Positions 7,529 to 54,646 of a DNA stretch of 64,000 nt are shown here, in pieces. Position 1 is the first letter of the stretch, and every line of letters starts with the position of its first letter. The notes beneath the pieces are model-generated. The model had not been told where the DNA came from. It was given only the letters and a program-made list of their open reading frames with translations, and did not search any database. Made by a program: the position numbers and the translations under genes. Source of the DNA: a virus (Duplodnaviria; Heunggongvirae; Uroviricota; Caudoviricetes); IMG/VR virus record IMGVR_UViG_3300031413_000001; one strand, written 5' to 3'.

Positions 7529-8710
7529 TTGAAGCGCATTGAGATCGAAGCCCGTCCCAACTGGGAAGCGGAATGCGAGAAGGTTGGTTTTTACTGGCAC
7601 ACGCTGGCAACCGACCCTGGCGTGGACCCCAAGTATTGGGACGAGACCAAGGCCTACGAGTTCACCGAGGCAGAGGTCGAGCGCATCGAGGAAGCATCCG
7701 CTGAGCTGTACAGGATGTGCCTCTCGGCCGTCGATTACGTGATCGAAAAGGGCCCGGAGATGCTGAGCCGTCTCGCAATCCCGGCCGCATTCCACGAAAT
7801 GGTGATCAAGAGCTGGAAGCGCCAGGATCTGGATCTCTACGGTCGCTTCGACTTTGCGCTGGCGCCCGATGGCACGCCGAAGATGCTGGAATTCAACGCT
7901 GACACGCCGACGAGCCTTCTCGAGGCTGCGGTCGTCCAGTGGTTCTGGATGGAGCAGTACGCGCAGCGAACGGGCCAGACGCTGGATCAGTTCAACAGCA
8001 TTCACGACCGGATGATCGAGCAGATGCGCGATATCGGCGCAGCGGTCCTCGGCCCCAACGAGACGTTCTACTTCGCGGCGGTCGCCGAGAATCTCGAGGA
8101 CAAGGGCACCGCTGAATACTTGCGCGATTGCGCGATGCAGGCCGGCATCAAGACCGACTACATCGACATCGAAAGCATCGGGTGGAACGGAACGGGCTTC
8201 CGCGACATGCAGGAGCAGCCAATCACGACGATCTTCAAGCTGTACCCGTGGGAGTGGCTGGTCCGTGAGGAGTTTGGTCTCCACATGACCAAGGATCCCT
8301 GGGACGTTCTGGAGCCCAGCTGGAAGCTGATCCTGAGCAACAAGGGTCTTCTCCCCATCCTCTGGGAGCTCTACCCCGACCATCCCAATCTTCTCCCCAG
8401 CTACTGGAACAGCGCACCGCTGGGTCTCAACTATGTCGAGAAGCCCATGCTGGCTCGCGAGGGTGCTGACGTGAAGATCATCCGCGATGGCAAAGTGGCC
8501 GTCGAAGGTGTCAAGCGCGGCTACGACAACCTGGCGCGCTCCATCTATCAGGAGTATCTCCCGCTTCCCAAGCACGATGGCATGACGCCGATCATCGGAA
8601 GCTGGATCGTGGGTGGTCGTGCGGTCGGCATGGGGATCCGCGAGGACATCAGCGAGGTCACCGGCAACACGTCGCGCTTCATTCCTCACTTCTTCCGTCC
8701 GGAGGCGTAA
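7529..8710 (+). CDS. Glutathionylspermidine synthase family ATP-grasp protein (YgiC/YjfC-like)
   Basis: LYGRFDF, KMLEFNADTPTSLLEAA, FKLYPWEW, EPSWKLILSNK, SRFIPHF. Confidence 0.95.
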   Translation: MKRIEIEARPNWEAECEKVGFYWHTLATDPGVDPKYWDETKAYEFTEAEVERIEEASAELYRMCLSAVDYVIEKGPEMLSRLAIPAAFHEMVIKSWKRQDLDLYGRFDFALAPDGTPKMLEFNADTPTSLLEAAVVQWFWMEQYAQRTGQTLDQFNSIHDRMIEQMRDIGAAVLGPNETFYFAAVAENLEDKGTAEYLRDCAMQAGIKTDYIDIESIGWNGTGFRDMQEQPITTIFKLYPWEWLVREEFGLHMTKDPWDVLEPSWKLILSNKGLLPILWELYPDHPNLLPSYWNSAPLGLNYVEKPMLAREGADVKIIRDGKVAVEGVKRGYDNLARSIYQEYLPLPKHDGMTPIIGSWIVGGRAVGMGIREDISEVTGNTSRFIPHFFRPEA

Positions 8711-29891: not shown

Positions 29892-29968
29892 CGGGGTATA
29901 GCGCAGTCAGGTAGCGCGTTCGTCTGGGGGACGAGAGGTCGCAGGTTCGAACCCTGCTATCCCGACCA
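29892..29968 (+). tRNA. tRNA-Pro(GGG)
   Basis: Cloverleaf, encoded CCA. Confidence 0.9.
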
Positions 29969-29990
29969 AGCTGGTTAGTCCAGCATACAT

Positions 29991-30073
29991 TCCCGTATGG
30001 TGAAATTGGTAGATACGCTTGGCTGTTAACCAAGTGCGAAAGCGTGGAGGTTCGAGTCCTTCTACGGGAGCCA
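29991..30073 (+). tRNA. tRNA-Asn(GTT) with a long variable arm
   Basis: cttgg-ctgttaa-ccaag; G73; extra gcgaaagc arm. Confidence 0.8.
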
Positions 30074-30095
30074 AGCTGTTAGTCAGCAATAATAT

Positions 30096-30172
30096 CTAGG
30101 TGTGGCCCAATCTGGTAAGGCGTTCCCTTCGGGAGGGAGAGACTGGAGGTTCGAATCCTCTCACCTAGACCA
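30096..30172 (+). tRNA. tRNA-Pro(CGG)
   Basis: Cloverleaf, CCA. Confidence 0.9.
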
Positions 30173-30193
30173 AGCATGTCAGTCATGCACTAT

Positions 30194-30278
30194 GGACACG
30201 TTGAGCAATTGGTTGGCTCACCGCACTCTTAATGCGCCGGACGAAAGTCCCTTGTGGGTTCGAACCCCACCGTGTCCT
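30194..30278 (+). tRNA. tRNA-Lys(CTT) with a long variable arm
   Basis: cgca-ctcttaa-tgcg; ggac-gaaa-gtcc arm. Confidence 0.75.
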
Positions 30279-30282
30279 CTTC

Positions 30283-30357
30283 GGCCCCATCTTCTAATGG
30301 TCAGGAAAGCGGGTTCTCAACCCGACAATCGGAGTTCAATTCTCCGTGGGGTCACCA
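30283..30357 (+). tRNA. tRNA-Glu(CTC)
   Basis: Cloverleaf, CCA. Confidence 0.85.
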
Positions 30358-30377
30358 AGCTGTAAGTCAGCAAACAT

Positions 30378-30453
30378 TGCCCCTTGGCGTAGTTGGTAGC
30401 GCAGCGCACTCTGAATGCGAAGGTGCCTGGTTCGAGACCAGGAGGGGCATCCA
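30378..30453 (+). tRNA. tRNA-Gln(CTG)
   Basis: Cloverleaf, CCA. Confidence 0.85.
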
Positions 30454-30473
30454 AGCTGTTAGGCAGCAAACAT

Positions 30474-30547
30474 TCCCCTGTCGTCTAACGGTAGGACAAC
30501 AGACTCTGACTCTGTTTGTATTGGTTCGAATCCAGTCGGGGGATCCA
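30474..30547 (+). tRNA. tRNA-Gln(CTG), second copy
   Basis: Cloverleaf, CCA. Confidence 0.85.
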
Positions 30548-30567
30548 AGCTGTAAGTCAGCAAACAT

Positions 30568-30641
30568 GGACAATTAGCTCAGTTGGTAGCAGCGACGGTC
30601 TCTTAAACCGTAGGTCCTGGGTTCGAACCCCAGATTGTCCA
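30568..30641 (+). tRNA. tRNA-Lys(CTT)
   Basis: Cloverleaf. Confidence 0.9.
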
Positions 30642-31552: not shown

Positions 31553-31637
31553 GGAAGAGGAAAGTCATCTTGGATATGGCAGTCTGACTGTAAATCAGAT
31601 CCTTCGGGGAGTGGTTCGATTCCGCCCTTTTCCACCA
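31553..31637 (+). tRNA. tRNA-Tyr(GTA)
   Basis: tctga-ctgtaaa-tcaga; CCA. Confidence 0.85.
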
Positions 31638-31654
31638 AGCTGTTAGTCAGCCAT

Positions 31655-31729
31655 ATGGGTGTATGATACAGGTAGTCGACTGGTCTCCAAAACCATGCAG
31701 AGAGGGTTCGAATCCCTCCACCCATGCCA
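31655..31729 (+). tRNA. tRNA-Trp(CCA)
   Basis: ctccaaa loop; G73; CCA. Confidence 0.8.
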
Positions 31730-31750
31730 AGCTGTAAGTCAGCAATCCAC

Positions 31751-31823
31751 GCGAGGTGGGCGGTACAGGTTATCGCACTGGTCTCATAAGCCGGCAAAAC
31801 AGGTTCGAGTCCTGTACTTCGCA
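31751..31823 (+). tRNA. tRNA-Met or Ile2 (CAT)
   Basis: ctcataa loop. Confidence 0.75.
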
Positions 31824-36083: not shown

Positions 36084-36125
36084 CCTTCTAATTGACAGCA
36101 CGGCAACGTGGTGTTAGTTTGATAA

Positions 36126-36267
36126 TGTTGCTGATGCAGCTTGAGAGGATGGTCTTAAAAAGCCAGTGCCCTTGGGTCGCTATACGGTCGAGCAATAGGG
36201 ACAAGATTACCCGGACGTGAAAGCGTGGTGAGGTTGCGTCGCTGGCGAGAGGATCCGGTTGGCAACA
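36126..36267 (+). ncRNA. Candidate structured ncRNA
   Basis: Promoter ttgaca at 36092; closing stem tgttgctga/ttggcaaca. Confidence 0.4.
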
Positions 36268-36271
36268 ACAT

Positions 36272-36347: not shown

Positions 36348-36418
36348 ACTCAGTTAGCACAATGGCAGTGCGGTCGGCCGATTACCGATTGATGAGGGTT
36401 CGATTCCTTCACTGAGTA
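36348..36418 (+). tRNA. tRNA-Ile(GAT)
   Basis: actcagt/actgagt; C33. Confidence 0.75.
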
Positions 36419-36419
36419 C

Positions 36420-36704
36420 TGATCTTGCAAGTCGAGTTACAGCAGGGCAGAGATGCTTTGAGGAAGTTCGCGACTGGCGTGAGGGACGAGTGGGAGGTGG
36501 CCAAAAGCCATCGTAAGGGAAGAGACCACCGTGATTAAGCCAGCAAGCCAAATAGACCATGGCAATCCTTCAGCTATATGGTCGGGTTGGTGCAGCCAGA
36601 GAGCAGTAAGTTCTCATCGCGTAATGGCGAGGCACAAGGCCAGAAATGGTCGGGTAGGTAGATTGTAGCATAGAACAGGATCGCGGCTACAGACGGCAAG
36701 ATCA
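36420..36704 (+). ncRNA. rnpB: Putative RNase P RNA (compact)
   Basis: P1 tgatcttgc/gcaagatca; P2 gttacag/ttgtagc; P3 cagggc/gctttg; P4 agttcgcga/tcgcggct with bulged U; GAGGAAGU and AACAGGAUCGCGGCUA motifs. Confidence 0.75.
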
Positions 36705-36709
36705 AACAT

Positions 36710-36780
36710 GCGGGTATCGTATAATGGTATTACCTCAGCCTTCCAAGCTGATGACAGGGGTTCGATCCCCCTTACCCGCT
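36710..36780 (+). tRNA. tRNA-Gly(TCC)
   Basis: Cloverleaf, U73. Confidence 0.9.
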
Positions 36781-36784
36781 CATA

Positions 36785-36884
36785 GGCTCCACCCTCTGAT
36801 TGCGCCCTCGTGGTTCTTTCAAGGTCCCGTCTCGAGTACGAGGGGCACTATCGGCTACCTAGGAAGAGCTGATAGTTGGGAGTC
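36785..36884 (+). ncRNA. Candidate three-way-junction ncRNA
   Basis: ggctcc/ggagtc, ccctcgt/acgaggg, ctatcggct/agctgatag. Confidence 0.4.
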
Positions 36885-36888
36885 ATCT

Positions 36889-37173: not shown

Positions 37174-37227
37174 ACGTTTGTTGTATCGTGCATCCAAGTC
37201 CCGTCTGATGGGAAGAGGAGAAACAAT

Positions 37228-37563
37228 ATGGCAAAGTTGAGCAAAGCTGTTCTGCAAAGGCAGCAAAAAGTAGATTACGTCGCCACCCTAGGTGAAGATG
37301 AAAGTCTCGATCTGGACAAGATCATCGCAGAGCACGGCCCTGGACTAACAATCCACTGGGAAAGTGGCTACTATGATGATCCCGGAAGTGTCACCATTCG
37401 TCGCATCCGTGAGGAGTCCGACGATGAATATGAGGCACGACTTGAACTGTTCCGTCAGATGGAACGCGACGCTCGGAACACCGTGAAAGCGGCTGCTGAG
37501 CGAAAGCTGATGGAAGAGCGGGCAACTTACGAGCGACTCCGCAAAAAGTTCGAGGACCAATAA
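37228..37563 (+). CDS. Hypothetical protein
   Basis: gaggag RBS. Confidence 0.75.
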   Translation: MAKLSKAVLQRQQKVDYVATLGEDESLDLDKIIAEHGPGLTIHWESGYYDDPGSVTIRRIREESDDEYEARLELFRQMERDARNTVKAAAERKLMEERATYERLRKKFEDQ

Positions 37564-37641
37564 GCCGTAAGGGGACACGCTTTAGGCGTTCTGGCAAACA
37601 GGAACTCACCCACTGGGGAGCAAAAGTCCTGGTCCCCATAT

Positions 37642-38101: not shown

Positions 38102-38155
38102 CTTAGACCAAGAATGCAGGATAGCGTTATGCCTAGATTGATATGCTTGGTCGAT

Positions 38156-38345
38156 GGTCACCGATGGGTAACCAGTGGAGGCGGCAGAATTATCTGTAGC
38201 GTCTGCCGGAAGCCCCGACCCTGGTAACAACGCACGGGCCGGACAGTCTGGGTTATCTCAAACTCAAACTTTGAACAAACCCCCAGATTACCAACTTGTC
38301 CGTGTTTTTAACTTCAGTGAAACCCATCTTAAATATCCGGTCACC
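38156..38345 (+). ncRNA. Candidate structured ncRNA
   Basis: gatgggt/acccatc, cggaca/tgtccg, tctggg/cccaga long-range stems. Confidence 0.35.
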
Positions 38346-38363
38346 AGAAAAGGAGATCGGCTT

Positions 38364-38615
38364 ATGTACAATGTGGTTCCTGCACTCGACGCGCTCAAGC
38401 TCGTTGGCGTAAACGCCAAGGATTGGATCATCAAGGCTGCAAAGTCCAAGACGATCTGGTTCTCGGCTGCTCTCACTGTTTTCGGTGCCGTGGAGGGTTT
38501 TCTTCCACAGATGGCAACAGTCCTTGGATCGCACTACGGCGCGGTTATCTCGGTTGTTGGTGTTATCACCGGCTTGCTTCGCTTTGCAACTACGGACGCA
38601 ATCGCGGACAAGTAA
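38364..38615 (+). CDS. Small membrane protein, holin-like
   Basis: KSKTIW followed by two TM helices; aggag RBS. Confidence 0.6.
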   Translation: MYNVVPALDALKLVGVNAKDWIIKAAKSKTIWFSAALTVFGAVEGFLPQMATVLGSHYGAVISVVGVITGLLRFATTDAIADK

Positions 38616-38645
38616 TAAAGTCCTGGGCTCCGGCCCAGGCAACAT

Positions 38646-38719: not shown

Positions 38720-38822
38720 GCAGTCGTAGCTCAGTGTTGTCCTTCAAGTTTCTGCAGGAACTCGGACATTGGAATGAGCGCCGGTAGCCCGGAGGTCGGG
38801 GGTTCGATTCCCTCCTGCTGCA
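38720..38822 (+). tRNA. Atypical tRNA-like RNA: large D-loop insert, 4-nt anticodon loop
   Basis: D stem gctc/gagc around a ~43-nt insert; ccgg-tagc-ccgg; canonical T arm. Confidence 0.55.
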
Positions 38823-39302: not shown

Positions 39303-39470
39303 CCGACCAAGAGAGTTAACGCCGTAGGCCCACTGGGACGCCTTTGGAAGCATGGTATTACTGTTGGGCAAGCCCCTGGATATTTGGATTCCAGAAGGTA
39401 AAGGAACCGGGTGTGGAAACTGGTCCTTGGTCGCTTGACACCCTGTACTCCTGATGTTATTCAGGATTCC

Positions 39471-39734
39471 ATGTATAAGGGAACCTTCCGACACGACGAC
39501 TACGTCCACCCCCGATTGTTAAATCGGATGGGTCGTGAGGGTATCAATCTGCGGATTGAGGTCACTTTTGCCATAAGCAAAGAGTGGAAGGCGACTTGGC
39601 TCCCCATCTATGAATGGTTGGCTGAACATCGCGTTTCCTACTGGACCTATAGCCCGTTTTCCACGGACTACAGGCGATACTTTGGGTTCGAGAGAGCCCA
39701 GGACGCCATGCTGTTTAAGCTGACGTTCGCATAA
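39471..39734 (+). CDS. Hypothetical protein (F..AQDAMLFKL family)
   Basis: C-terminal motif shared with other small ORFs. Confidence 0.65.
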   Translation: MYKGTFRHDDYVHPRLLNRMGREGINLRIEVTFAISKEWKATWLPIYEWLAEHRVSYWTYSPFSTDYRRYFGFERAQDAMLFKLTFA

Positions 39735-39735
39735 C

Positions 39736-39803
39736 GCTCCAACCAATGGATGGAGGCGGTCCTCCTAAGACTGCCCTTGTAGGTTCGACTCCCACTTGGA
39801 GCA
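39736..39803 (+). tRNA. tRNA-Arg(CCT), reduced D arm
   Basis: gcggtc-ctcctaa-gactgc. Confidence 0.55.
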
Positions 39804-39843
39804 CTTGGCATAAGTAGATTGCAACTCAACAGGAGTAACTTTT

Positions 39844-39939
39844 ATGTTCAAGAAGATTTTCGAATTCGTCATTGCCAAGAAGCTGATTGAAAAGGTGCTC
39901 GCAAAGCGCGCAGCAAAGAAGAATCAGCCAAGGGTATAA
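39844..39939 (+). CDS. 31-aa cationic amphipathic peptide
   Basis: aggag RBS; MFKKIFEFVIAKKLIEKVLAKRAAKKNQPRV. Confidence 0.55.
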   Translation: MFKKIFEFVIAKKLIEKVLAKRAAKKNQPRV

Positions 39940-39979
39940 TTGACTTACGGCTAACCAAGCTGTAGAACAAGAATATGAT

Positions 39980-40052
39980 CGGCGGACCGATCGTTTAGGG
40001 TTATCGCATTGGAAGCACTGGTATGTGGGTTCGAGTCCCACCTCCCCGACCA
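39980..40052 (+). pseudogene. Degenerate tRNA-Pro(TGG)
   Basis: T arm and CCA intact; anticodon stem mostly lost. Confidence 0.5.
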
Positions 40053-40123
40053 CATGACGGGGAGTAGGCCAATTGGATGAGCCGGTTTACATCCTATTCA
40101 ACACTTGTCCGCCGATTATACAT

Positions 40124-49546: not shown

Positions 49547-51076
49547 ATGCAGGTTGCCCAGTTCAACAAGGGTCACGACATCTTCTTCGCCGCGATCGAG
49601 AAGACCCGTATGCCCATGGCACTTACGGATCCCAATCAGCCTGACAATCCAATCGTATTCGTCAACCGGGCGTTTGTTGAGCTCACGGGATACGAGGAAA
49701 CTGAAATCCTTGGCCGTAACTGTCGCTTTCTACAAGGCGAGGATTCTGATCCCGAGACAGTCACGCAGATCCGTGAAGCCATTGCGGCTCGCGAGGATCT
49801 GTCTGTTGAACTCCTGAACTATCGCAAAGATGGCAGCACCTTTTGGAATGCCCTTTACATCAGTCCAGTCTATGACGACAAGAACAACCTGCGATTCTTC
49901 TTTGCCAGCCAGCTGGATATCAGTCGTCGCCACTTGGCCGAGGAAGCACTTCAGCAAGCGCAGAAGATGGAAGCAGTCGGCCAGCTGACCGGTGGCATTG
50001 CCCATGACTTCAACAACATGCTGACCGTCATTCAGGGAAACTTAGAACTTGCGATGGCGAGAGCTAATGGGCAAGACGCCGTGATCAAGCCAATGGATCG
50101 TGCCATGAAGGGTGCCCTCCATGCGGCCAAGCTGACCGAGCAGCTATTGAGCTTTGCCCGAAAGCAGCGCCTGAACAGCACCACGGTCAACTTGAATGAC
50201 ATGGTCACTGGAACCGTTGACGTCATTGCTCGGACGCTTGGTAGCAATGTGGAGATTGGTCTCAACTTGGATCAGGATGTGGCCTTGGTGGAAGTGGACG
50301 TTGTCCAGCTGAACACGGCCATCTTGAACGTTTTGATTAATGCCCGTGACGCGATGCCTCATGGTGGCAAGATCTGCATCTCCACCCACAACGAAACTAT
50401 TGAAGATCCAGGTGAGTGGCTGGTCACGCCGGGAACCTACAGCGTGATCTCCCTAAAGGATGATGGCGTAGGAATTCCTCCCGAGCATATCAAACACGTC
50501 ACGGAGCCCTTTTACACCACCAAGGAAGTTGGCAAGGGAACCGGTATGGGTCTTGCAATGGTCTTTGGATTCCTAAAGCAAAGTGGTGGACACCTCGTCA
50601 TCAACAGCGATGGTGATGGAACTGACATCCGCTTTTACCTGGCTCAGAGCTCCAACGCTGAGATCCACAAGAGCAACGTAAAGGCTCACTTCAAAGAATC
50701 CCCTCGTCGTAGCGAGCGCCTATTGGTTGTTGAGGACAACCAGCAGATCATGGATATGATGCACGACACACTTACGGATCAGGGCTATGACGTCCGCTTT
50801 GCAACCAGTGCCGCAGAAGCCATTGGGATAATGGACGATGGTTTCAAGCCTGAGGTGCTCTGCACGGATATCGTGATGCCTGGTCTGCTGAACGGTGTAG
50901 ATCTCGCCCATGAGGTTAAGAAGCGTTTTCCCAAGGCAAAGGTTCTCCTCTGCACTGGCTGGGCCAATCGTCACCTTGACCGTGAACACGAGTTTTCAAT
51001 CTTGTCCAAGCCCTACAAGCCAAGCGATCTGGTGCAAAGGCTGACCAGCTTGATTGTCCGGGGCCACGAAGGCTAA
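49547..51076 (+). CDS. LOV-domain hybrid sensor histidine kinase (LOV-HisKA-HATPase-REC)
   Basis: GRNCRFLQG; GIAHDFNN H-box; GKGTGMGL; receiver domain LCTDIVMPG. Confidence 0.95.
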   Translation: MQVAQFNKGHDIFFAAIEKTRMPMALTDPNQPDNPIVFVNRAFVELTGYEETEILGRNCRFLQGEDSDPETVTQIREAIAAREDLSVELLNYRKDGSTFWNALYISPVYDDKNNLRFFFASQLDISRRHLAEEALQQAQKMEAVGQLTGGIAHDFNNMLTVIQGNLELAMARANGQDAVIKPMDRAMKGALHAAKLTEQLLSFARKQRLNSTTVNLNDMVTGTVDVIARTLGSNVEIGLNLDQDVALVEVDVVQLNTAILNVLINARDAMPHGGKICISTHNETIEDPGEWLVTPGTYSVISLKDDGVGIPPEHIKHVTEPFYTTKEVGKGTGMGLAMVFGFLKQSGGHLVINSDGDGTDIRFYLAQSSNAEIHKSNVKAHFKESPRRSERLLVVEDNQQIMDMMHDTLTDQGYDVRFATSAAEAIGIMDDGFKPEVLCTDIVMPGLLNGVDLAHEVKKRFPKAKVLLCTGWANRHLDREHEFSILSKPYKPSDLVQRLTSLIVRGHEG

Positions 51077-52588: not shown

Positions 52589-54646
52589 ATGTCCGGCGCT
52601 CTCCGCCCGAACACACCAAACATCAAAATGATTAAATACACGGGTATCCTCCTGAAAGGTAGCTTCGTGTCTAAACATCTTTTCACCCCACATTCCAGTG
52701 AGATGGCAAAGCGGATGCAAGCCCATGATTGGGACAGCACTCCACTTGGCTCTTCGGATGGGTGGCCGGAGACTTTGAAGACTCTTGTCCGCATTATGCT
52801 TGCAAGTGGTCAGCCTATGTTTACAACATGGGGACCAGATCGAATCCTACTTTACAATGATCCATATATTCAGATGCTGGCTGATCGTCATCCAATGGCG
52901 CTGGGTCAGCGATTCAATGATGTGTGGGTTGAAGCGATGCCCGACTTGGAACCACTGTTCCATCAAGTCTACGAGGGCTTTCCAGTATTCATGGACGACC
53001 TAACTCTCTTTCTAGACCGGGAAGGCTTCCCCAAGGAAAGTCACTTTGCATTCAGCTATACGCCAATTCGTCCCATGGTTGGTGAAGAGATCCTGGGCTT
53101 GTTCTGTGCCTGCACAGAGACAACCAACAGTGTGATGGCGCGCAAAAAGGTGGACATGGAGCGTGAACGCTTGTTCCGCATGAGCAGCGACTTGTTCGCA
53201 GTTGGAACCTTTGATGGATACCTGCTGAGTGTAAATCCTGCATGGTCAGTATCGCTGGAACGCACTGACGAAGAACTCCTAGCTATTCCCTTTCTGGATA
53301 TCATCCACCCCGAGGATCTGGAAAAAGTTGAGATTGCTGTTGAGATAATGCGAAGTGGAGAGCCTCATCAGTTCCACACTCGTCTTCTAAAGAGCGATGG
53401 GACGTCACGCAATTTTGCATGGTCGTCAATTCCCGATACAGATTCCAGTAGCTCAATCTTCTACACCGTTGGCCGTGATATCACGGATGAGGTGCAGCGA
53501 GAAGAGATGTTCCGTCAGGCACAAAAGATGGAGGCCGTTGGTCAGTTGACCGGAGGTGTCGCTCATGATTTCAACAACCTCTTGACAGTTATCCAGGGAT
53601 CCGTTGATCTGTTGCGTCGCGCTGATCTACCGGAAGCCCGACGAGTCAAGTACATTGATGCCATTGCCAACACCAGCAAGAGGGCAGCCAAGCTGACAAG
53701 CCAGCTGTTGGCTTTTGCTCGTCGCCAGGCACTGAAGCCAGCGGTGTTTGAAGTTGGTCAGAATGTCCGCGCAGTCACGGATATGATCCAGAGTCTAATG
53801 GGTGGAAAGATCAATGTAACGACGCTGTTCAGCGATCTCCCCTGCTATGTGAATGCAGACCCCAGCCAGTTTGATACAGCGATTGTCAACATGGCAATCA
53901 ACGCACGTGATGCAATGGACCATGAGGGAGCATTGACGATCACCGTAAAGGAAGTCGACAGTCTGCCGGCTGTTCGAGAGAATGCCGCCATCGCTTCCAG
54001 CTACATCTCGGTTAGCCTTGAGGACAACGGATGCGGCATTCCTGCTGATCAGATCAACAAGATCTTTGAGCCGTTCTTCACAACCAAGGACACTGGCAAG
54101 GGCACTGGACTGGGCTTGAGTCAGGTCTTTGGTTTCTCACGCCAGAGCGGAGGCGAGATTCAAGTTGAGAGCGAAGTTGGAGTTGGTAGCAAGTTCACAC
54201 TATTCCTTCCATCGGTCGAGGAACCCGCGGAGTTCAAGACTGAGGGCGAAGTAATTGAGCTGGTAAAGGGACACGGTACGAGAGTTCTGCTAGTTGAAGA
54301 CAATGCCGATGTTGGAAACTTTGCGACTCAAGCACTCAATGAGCTTGGCTATGAAACCGTATGGTCCGCTACAGCAGACGAGGCCTTGGAAGAACTAGCC
54401 GAGTGCGATGATTGCTTTGACATCGTGTTCAGTGATGTTGTGATGCCTGGTATGAATGGCGTTGAGCTTGGCCATGAGATCCGTCGACTATACAAGAACT
54501 TGCCCGTGGTACTAACCAGCGGCTACAGTCATGTATTGGCCAAGAACGGTACTTACGGCTTTGAACTACTTCACAAGCCATACAGTATCGAACAGCTCAG
54601 TCAGATTTTGAGCAAGGCGCTTGCTTGGAAAAAGGCTAATTCCTAA
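52589..54646 (+). CDS. PAS-PAS hybrid sensor histidine kinase with receiver (true start probably ~52668-52703)
   Basis: WDSTPLG, HFAFSYTP, GVAHDFNN, GKGTGLGL, VFSDVVMPG. Confidence 0.95.
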   Translation: MSGALRPNTPNIKMIKYTGILLKGSFVSKHLFTPHSSEMAKRMQAHDWDSTPLGSSDGWPETLKTLVRIMLASGQPMFTTWGPDRILLYNDPYIQMLADRHPMALGQRFNDVWVEAMPDLEPLFHQVYEGFPVFMDDLTLFLDREGFPKESHFAFSYTPIRPMVGEEILGLFCACTETTNSVMARKKVDMERERLFRMSSDLFAVGTFDGYLLSVNPAWSVSLERTDEELLAIPFLDIIHPEDLEKVEIAVEIMRSGEPHQFHTRLLKSDGTSRNFAWSSIPDTDSSSSIFYTVGRDITDEVQREEMFRQAQKMEAVGQLTGGVAHDFNNLLTVIQGSVDLLRRADLPEARRVKYIDAIANTSKRAAKLTSQLLAFARRQALKPAVFEVGQNVRAVTDMIQSLMGGKINVTTLFSDLPCYVNADPSQFDTAIVNMAINARDAMDHEGALTITVKEVDSLPAVRENAAIASSYISVSLEDNGCGIPADQINKIFEPFFTTKDTGKGTGLGLSQVFGFSRQSGGEIQVESEVGVGSKFTLFLPSVEEPAEFKTEGEVIELVKGHGTRVLLVEDNADVGNFATQALNELGYETVWSATADEALEELAECDDCFDIVFSDVVMPGMNGVELGHEIRRLYKNLPVVLTSGYSHVLAKNGTYGFELLHKPYSIEQLSQILSKALAWKKANS

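Follow-up and report, generated by a model that had tools for sequence, protein, structure and literature searches.

A probable miniaturised RNase P RNA encoded within the tRNA gene array of a jumbo phage

The RNA of ribonuclease P (RNase P) is a ribozyme counted among the universal housekeeping components of cells, and the locus described here raises the question of whether large phages carry a version of it themselves. The locus lies in 64,000 nucleotides (nt) of jumbo phage DNA (IMG/VR virus record IMGVR_UViG_3300031413_000001), termed the window, where a same-strand array of 49 transfer RNA (tRNA) genes surrounds an RNase P RNA-like gene at positions 36420-36704. The original prediction, made from the letters of the sequence, had identified this segment as a phage-encoded RNase P RNA; the identification is supported by a topology collinear with the bacterial RNA and by two phage relatives that match the Rfam model RF00010, one in Stenotrophomonas phage DLP6 (54.7 bits) and one in a complete 177-kb IMG/VR phage, termed L014 (178.2 bits). 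The segment is a real, conserved structured RNA gene, and it is very probably a derivative of RNase P RNA.

The conservation of the element was established from its distribution in phages. When 50,697 phage records were searched with the window RNA by distant blastn, one match was obtained, in Stenotrophomonas phage DLP6 (E 6e-16), and the alignment spans the whole element, with long invariant blocks alternating with variable stems. A search of IMG/VR with a 15-mer from conserved region I (CR-I) retrieved at least 46 loci, with 42 distinct sequences among them, in which every block of the signature is present; this signature occurred in 46/119 viral loci listed for the pattern against 2/119 cellular loci listed. 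The two cellular loci, L183 and L213, were rejected as members, as a covariance model built from 34 family members (R1) gave no match to L183 and a partial 15-bit match to L213 over the search-pattern region. Since the signature is confined to two of the cellular loci listed, neither of which is recognised by R1, the RNA family is essentially viral, and no cellular source lineage was found among the 119 cellular loci listed for the CR-I pattern. A second pattern, located outside helix P4, retrieved at least 25 viral loci comprising 12 known members and 13 new ones, two of the latter broken or divergent; all 13 were scored by R1. The family thus comprises more than 55 phage copies, with R1 scoring 56 of them at 196 to 34 bits and E-values ranging from 1e-55 to 1e-14 across the >55 members. 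Divergent phages carrying the reduced form span a GC range of 33-63%, and the smallest members measure ~190-200 nt. The nearest record, the 416.7-kb IMG/VR viral contig G001, has a copy 98% identical to the window RNA. Further members include those of the cultured phage DLP6 and of two huge phages of 735 kb (LR756501, R1 177 bits) and 635 kb (LR745206, R1 128 bits), and in all three records the member sites are unannotated. The DLP6 copy (L124:1501-1749; KU682439.2, about 105768-106025) occupies an unannotated spacer with a coding sequence on one side and tRNA-Arg on the other, and the huge-phage copies are located as follows:

L293:1471-1710 (LR756501.1), unannotated family member, no tRNA within 1.5 kb
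L294:1449-1679 (LR745206.1), unannotated family member, no tRNA within 1.5 kb

Folding and covariation both support a conserved RNA structure. A 290-nt segment folds at -102.7 kcal/mol (z = -4.98 against 200 dinucleotide shuffles) with both ends paired together. RNAalifold, applied to a plain MAFFT alignment, predicted 25 pairs in P2, the P3 base, a P5-like helix, P15, P16 and P17, and 21 of these pairs show compensatory double changes; this result is independent of the fitting of the larger, model-fitted alignment of 56 members (49 distinct rows). In the latter, 96.8% of cells are paired against 67.4% in column shuffles, and double-change cells number 331 against 83. Its covariation score of 0.772 compares with 0.207 when shuffled and was matched by 0/500 shuffles, while a control in which the 3′ partners were slid by 1-3 columns reached at most 0.086. 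The P1 strands are unrelated in sequence among members and keep their complementarity; P2 retains 6/6 pairs in 38/40 members through at least 15 sequence combinations. Helix P4 was fixed by the CR-I search pattern in the first sample and was tested only in the P4-independent sample, which yielded five independent compensatory variants: A-U to U-A (L281/L291), G-C to C-G (L283/L288), G-C to A-U (L287/L292), a triple change in L282 and three double changes in LR745206. The U bulged from P4 is present in 48/48 sequences. A protein-coding reading of 36420-36704 was discarded, since the overlapping open reading frames (ORFs) are of chance type (42-68 aa) and the compensatory substitutions favour an RNA.

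Helices P1, P2, P3 and P4 with its bulged U, which the original prediction had paired by hand, are all present, as are the two blocks that it had likened to conserved regions I and V, GAGGAAGU at 36460-36467 and AACAGGAUCGCGGCUA at 36674-36689. The parts of the window RNA are:

36420-36428/36696-36704 (+), outer P1, with inner P1 formed by GUC 36431-36433 and GAC 36692-36694; 12/12 pairs standard
36436-36442/36663-36669 (+), P2 (GUUACAG); covaries and is predicted independently by RNAalifold
36443-36460 (+), P3 hairpin; 7 base pairs (bp) with a GAGA loop, base covarying, length differing among members
36460-36474 (+), CR-I, GAGGAAGUUCGCGAC; gapless alignment to Rfam/E. coli GAGGAAAGUCCGGGC
36465-36473/36681-36688 (+), P4; 8 standard pairs, bulged U at 36468
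36474-36478/36539-36543 (+), P5-like helix, CUGGC/GCCAG; covaries (UA/AU, GC/AU/UA/CG, CG/GC)
36479-36538 (+), stub in place of the specificity domain; 60 nt, pairs verified
36487-36493/36526-36531 (+), helix of the stub, with an inner hairpin at 36496-36512 and the strand GUAAGGGAAGAGA
36543-36546 (+), GCAA, the final P5 base plus CAA of junction J5/15; aligned by a bacteria-only model (R2)
36547-36551/36587-36591 (+), P15; covaries
36556-36582 (+), P16/17-like hairpin; P16 and P17 covary
36583-36587 (+), 3′ side of L15, CGGGU; counterpart of E. coli GGU, aligned to the consensus by R2
36595-36655 (+), insertion at the P18 position; forked two-hairpin element 36595-36633 and GAAA-capped hairpin 36634-36655 (core 36638-36651)
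36655-36669 (+), J18/2-like strand UAGGUAGA followed by the P2 3′ strand (36663-36669); family consensus UAGAUAAA, E. coli UAGAUGAA
36670-36689 (+), J2/4 and CR-V, AUAGAACAGGAUCGCGGCUA; contains the P4 3′ strand 36681-36688
36692-36704 (+), P1 3′ strand; complementary to the P1 5′ strand

Assignment of these blocks from Rfam's structure-annotated alignment of E. coli rnpB revealed the same order in the phage and E. coli RNAs, P1-P2-P3-CR-I-P5...P5′-J5/15(CAA)-P15-L15-P16/17-L15′(CGGGU)-P15′-[P18]-J18/2-P2′-J2/4-CR-V-P1′. The phage CR-I and CR-V (GAGGAAGUUCGCGA and UCGCGGCU) align without gaps to those of E. coli (GAGGAAAGUCCGGG and CCCGGCUU), and P4 retains the E. coli geometry of 3 bp, a bulged U and 5 bp, with five pairs changed and all of them compensated. 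Two provisional assignments were dropped: the gapless alignment with compensated substitutions rules out a CR-I one A shorter than in E. coli, and AGCAAGCCAAAUAG, considered as CR-III-like, corresponds in the Rfam structure line to J5/15-P15-L15. The phage RNA shares with E. coli M1 RNA and RF00010 the P1-P5 and P4 pseudoknot geometry, the J3/4 motif GAGGAA, the CAA of J5/15, P15/L15 with CGGGU, P16/17, an A-rich J18/2 (UAGAUAAAUGA versus UAGAUGAAUGA) and ACAGAA...GGCU.A in J2/4 and CR-V. The architecture of the catalytic domain is therefore complete, comprising P1-P5, P4 with the bulged U, J5/15, P15/L15 with GGU, P16/17, J18/2 and J2/4. The J5/15 CAA occupies the position of E. coli A248.

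Conservation within this core is concentrated in unpaired nucleotides. Compared with 30 bacterial rnpB 3′ halves, in which 47 positions are invariant, the window RNA is identical at 30/47, and the mismatches fall in P4, where they are compensated, in P15 and in P18. Between 83% and 100% of family members retain the junction nucleotides GCAA, CGGGU, AGA..AAUG, ACA.AA and the final UA: GCAA (P5 end and J5/15) is invariant in the 30 bacterial genes and in 47/47 phage members, CGGGU of L15 is retained in 94-100% of members, and ACA.AA and the terminal UA in 85-100%. As the nucleotides conserved in the junctions of RNase P form its active site and contact the substrate, this pattern points to catalysis as the target of selection, and not simply to folding or protein binding. 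The GGU motif of P15/L15 represents the class A mode of binding the 3′-RCCA of tRNA, and from the retained CGGGU it appears that the RNA continues to read the tRNA 3′ end.

Major differences from bacterial RNase P RNA are observed outside the catalytic domain. The specificity domain (S-domain), which comprises the P7-P10 cruciform, P11-P14 and conserved regions CR-II and CR-III, is absent from the window RNA, in which 60 nt separate the two P5 strands. In contrast with RF00010, P7-P14, including the CR-II/CR-III module that reads the T-loop, are replaced by a conserved stub of 48-70 nt; measured with the P5 strands included, the region spans 48-190 nt (median 58) in 47 members. These members share one stub design, consisting of an A-rich 5′ strand, a covarying helix of 4-6 bp, a variable hairpin and a conserved 3′ strand. 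P18 is likewise modified, as minimal members have nothing at its position, whereas three hairpins stand there in the window RNA; such hairpins occur in the window clade together with L011 and L058 and are reduced in DLP6. In the window RNA the insertion folds with a minimum free energy of -24.1 kcal/mol (z = -4.03). The phage RNA is 285 nt long, and its smallest relatives ~190-200 nt, against ~350-400 nt for RF00010; the family further differs in being phage-borne, inside tRNA arrays and without rnpA, and in scoring below the gathering score of the Rfam model or escaping it altogether. The original prediction had given the size correctly at about 285 nt and understated the loss, naming P19 and some peripheral helices where P7-P14 are essentially gone; the extra hairpins at the P18 position had gone unmentioned.

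The link between the reduced RNA and full-size RNase P RNA is provided by two phage copies that retain more of the ancestral signal. L014 contains a 303-nt RNA at 837-1139 that scores 178.2 bits against RF00010, above the gathering score of 100 bits, and its 3′ half is found by a bacteria-only nhmmer profile (E 9e-12). It retains P7-P12 and P18, lacking P13/P14 only, and its CR-I and CR-V are identical to those of the family. It shares the CR-I 15-mer, CR-V and P4 variant of the window RNA and has tRNA genes less than 300 nt away; compared with it, the window RNA has lost P7-P12 and P18. Within the same lineage, L014 appears to represent the state before reduction. The DLP6 copy, found with the window sequence and without any RNase P model, scores 54.7 bits (E 3.3e-17) against RF00010 by a genome-search route, below the gathering score. 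Judged from sequence, the significant evidence for homology is transitive, running through a graded series in which L014 reaches 178 bits and DLP6 55 bits, while the window copy goes undetected.

How such an RNA might act is suggested by the genes on either side of it. As had been predicted, it is located within the tRNA array, and its flanks are:

36348-36419 (+), tRNA-Ile(GAU); its discriminator base directly abuts P1 of the RNA gene
36420-36704 (+), RNase P RNA-like gene, 285 nt; R1 142.6 bits, E 1.8e-40
36710-36781 (+), tRNA-Gly(UCC); begins after a 5-nt gap 3′ of the RNA gene

The R1 match at 36420-36704 is the only one in the window, no second RNase P-like copy being recognised by this model, and the upstream tRNA-Ile(GAU) has no encoded CCA. 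Elsewhere in the family, tRNA genes lie at most 2 kb away in 33/50 members and at most 30 nt away in 23/50, and in each of the 40 loci with any tRNA the nearest one shares the strand of the RNA. A search for rnpA with Pfam PF00825 gave no match in four RNA-carrying genomes (G001, G052, G003 and DLP6), three of which are at least 90% complete, while all 10 control bacteria matched. The probable function is that the window RNA is a miniaturised RNase P RNA, derived from bacterial class A within a lineage of large phages, which would cleave precursor tRNAs (pre-tRNAs) together with the host protein RnpA. It would be co-transcribed with the tRNA array, its 5′ end would be made by 3′ processing of tRNA-Ile, and an RNase P cut 5′ of tRNA-Gly would free it with a 5-nt tail. 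It would then pair with host RnpA, the likely partner because rnpA was not found in the four genomes, and cleave the 5′ leaders of phage pre-tRNAs, which would provide extra processing capacity for the 49-gene array. The RNA regions that touch bacterial RnpA all lie in the catalytic domain; their retention, together with the failure to find RnpA in the four genomes, would make a complex of phage RNA and host RnpA the likeliest enzyme. Substrates would be recognised mainly through the acceptor stem, 3′ end and leader and not through the T-loop elbow, and a ribozyme without the elbow-reading domain would be expected to recognise its substrates more weakly or more broadly. Pre-tRNA cleavage persists in the isolated bacterial catalytic domain, above all when the protein subunit is present, and the natural type T RNase P RNAs of Pyrobaculum are active without an S-domain.

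A wider proposal is plausible, with conviction falling somewhat short of an even balance. It holds that large phages own a working RNase P ribozyme lacking the S-domain (~190-290 nt, which would make it the smallest natural bacterial type) that matures their tRNA arrays with host RnpA or alone, and that the stub is a new recognition module freeing the enzyme from elbow reading, so that unusual phage tRNAs and other RNAs of the island could be processed.

Several observations weigh against the identification as a pre-tRNA-processing RNase P RNA. The check that accompanied the original prediction, cmscan against the Rfam RNase P models, was negative: no RNase P match was obtained on the window at the gathering score, and no Rfam model matched the RNA in a scan of 36400-36720 even at E <= 10. 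The RF00010 genome-search route detected nothing in the 98% identical copy of G001 or in 9/10 other member-carrying IMG/VR records, candidate coverage being uncertain in both cases. The match of R1 to E. coli rnpB is collinear and non-significant (2.6 bits, E 0.27), and that of R2, a covariance model of the rnpB 3′ half built from bacteria only, to the window is likewise collinear and non-significant (9.1 bits, E 1.1). Bacteria-only nhmmer profiles of the 3′ half, the 5′ part and an S-domain-deleted composite match L014 only and nothing on the window, while the R1 match to L014 (E 6e-8) is partly by construction, since this phage was fetched by the shared CR-I 15-mer. Within the RNA, the domain that reads the T-loop is gone and J18/2 of the window clade has two A-to-G differences from the bacterial invariants; in the surroundings, CCA is encoded in 17/49 window tRNA genes, and ~10/50 fetched loci as well as both huge-phage loci contain no tRNA. 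As for the searches, cmscan with its E-value filters is likewise blind to the DLP6 copy, to which the genome-search route gives 54.7 bits. The cmscan zeros on the window copy are thus at least partly false negatives of the filters, and negative cmscan results for reduced RNAs should not be read as absence.

Among the other explanations, the one that survives best takes the RNA as a catalytic, RNase P-derived ribozyme that has been retargeted, its main substrates being something other than ordinary pre-tRNAs and its stub a new recognition module. Candidate substrates would be non-tRNA structured RNAs of the island, tRNA-like ends, phage or host mRNAs and aberrant phage tRNAs. This would fit the replacement of the T-loop-reading S-domain by a conserved, covarying stub instead of a plain deletion, the long tRNA-free gaps of the window array and the members, 635-kb and 735-kb phage copies included, whose fetched loci lack tRNA genes. 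It is nevertheless unlikely, as most members are embedded in same-strand tRNA arrays, the L15 CGGGU, which binds the tRNA 3′ end in bacteria, is among the best-conserved blocks, and no alternative substrate was identified.

The failure to find a phage RnpA, by which any function would go through the host protein, is also what would be expected of a non-catalytic decoy or regulator that binds host RnpA or pre-tRNAs and so throttles or redirects host tRNA maturation during infection. The two departures of J18/2 from bacterial invariants in the window clade and the poor scores of the window RNA with standard RNase P models point in the same direction. In contrast, the strongest conservation is found at unpaired active-site and substrate-contact nucleotides and at the invariant bulged U, which would be unneeded for protein binding alone, and the graded series can be traced to a phage RNase P RNA of full size; a decoy is accordingly rated as quite improbable.

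The absence of a significant direct match between the window copy and any bacteria-derived model would, taken by itself, be compatible with a structured phage RNA that is unrelated to RNase P and resembles it by convergence or coincidence. This is opposed by the significance of the DLP6 homolog against RF00010, by seven helices and five junction motifs collinear with the Rfam annotation, by the identical register of P4, and by the fact that the second-best match of R2 in a 128-kb search space is window 36543-36593, the right module on the right strand, and such coincidence is highly improbable. A decaying pseudogene of a once-complete phage RNase P RNA, to which the loss of a whole domain and the interruption of one member (L284/L285) by an insertion could be ascribed, is the least credible explanation, because compensatory substitutions in every helix and near-invariant core junctions across dozens of divergent phages that conserve the reduced form point to purifying selection and not decay.

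The reading as a miniaturised RNase P RNA has counterparts in nature and in the laboratory. Type T RNase P RNA (RF02357), found in Pyrobaculum and relatives, displays a natural, near-total loss of the S-domain like that of the phage RNA; in contrast, it is archaeal in type, cellular and associated with archaeal proteins, and has no sequence relationship to the phage RNA, in which RF02357 gave no match at E <= 10 in the window copy. Type T RNA was reportedly described by Lai and colleagues in 2010 as active despite near-complete S-domain loss. It is the best functional precedent, and the loss of the S-domain in the two RNAs is a case of convergent reduction. Engineered bacterial RNase P RNAs limited to the catalytic domain (C-domain) retain the same parts as the phage RNA; these are laboratory deletions, whereas the phage RNA is a natural, selected form with a conserved stub. 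Such constructs bind the protein subunit and cleave pre-tRNA at reduced efficiency.

The full-text literature, a scope outside which subscription-only papers fall, yielded no account of an RNase P RNA encoded by a phage or other virus, and the paper on huge phages whose genomes contain copies mentions tRNAs and transfer-messenger RNAs (tmRNAs) and never RNase P. Standard Rfam/cmscan annotation is blind to the family, which leaves its genes unannotated in DLP6 and in the 635-kb and 735-kb phages. If RNase P RNA has a conserved viral lineage, the translation-related cargo of large phages, which includes tRNAs, tmRNA, synthetases and ribosomal proteins, would gain a catalytic RNA. The family also indicates which parts selection treats as indispensable, namely the whole catalytic domain including the CCA-binding loop, and which are dispensable, namely P7-P14 and P18, and it provides mechanistic and structural studies with compact, predicted natural ribozymes of ~200 nt.

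In one family member the P16/17 hairpin is interrupted by an insertion of ~300 nt, beginning ...ATGAAAACAGTT, which may be mobile or may represent an intron of the phage RNase P RNA gene:

L285:8612-8794 and L285:9096-9320 (-), split member; P4 strands GCCAC/GGCGG still match
L284:7662-7844 (-), same 3′ half

Further features were observed in the tRNA array of the window. A 103-nt match to the Rfam tRNA model at 38720-38822 (+; 38.6 bits) was not called by ARAGORN; it may represent a tRNA gene interrupted by an insertion or intron, or else a tRNA-like RNA of atypical form. A run of CCA-encoding tRNAs at 29968-30568 and 31637-31751 (+) has near-identical spacers of 17-22 nt beginning AGCTGT(T/A)A, which could be a repeated processing signal or the trace of tandem duplication. 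At Rfam gathering thresholds, positions 1-64000 gave 41 tRNA matches only, with no Y RNA, signal recognition particle (SRP) RNA or GOLLD, a weak negative as cmscan also missed the RNase P RNA. The array also includes long tRNA-free gaps at 36086-36271, 36782-36888, 37174-37641, 38103-38645 and 39305-40123 (+), which contain only short or partly overlapping ORFs and could hold further structured RNAs. The larger ORFs of the window are accessory-type genes:

7529-8710 (+), glutathionylspermidine-synthase-family protein, Pfam E 9e-136
49547-51076 and 52589-54646 (+), two hybrid histidine kinases (PAS-HisKA-HATPase_c-receiver), an unusual phage cargo
59269-60900 (+), Eco57I-type methylase-domain protein

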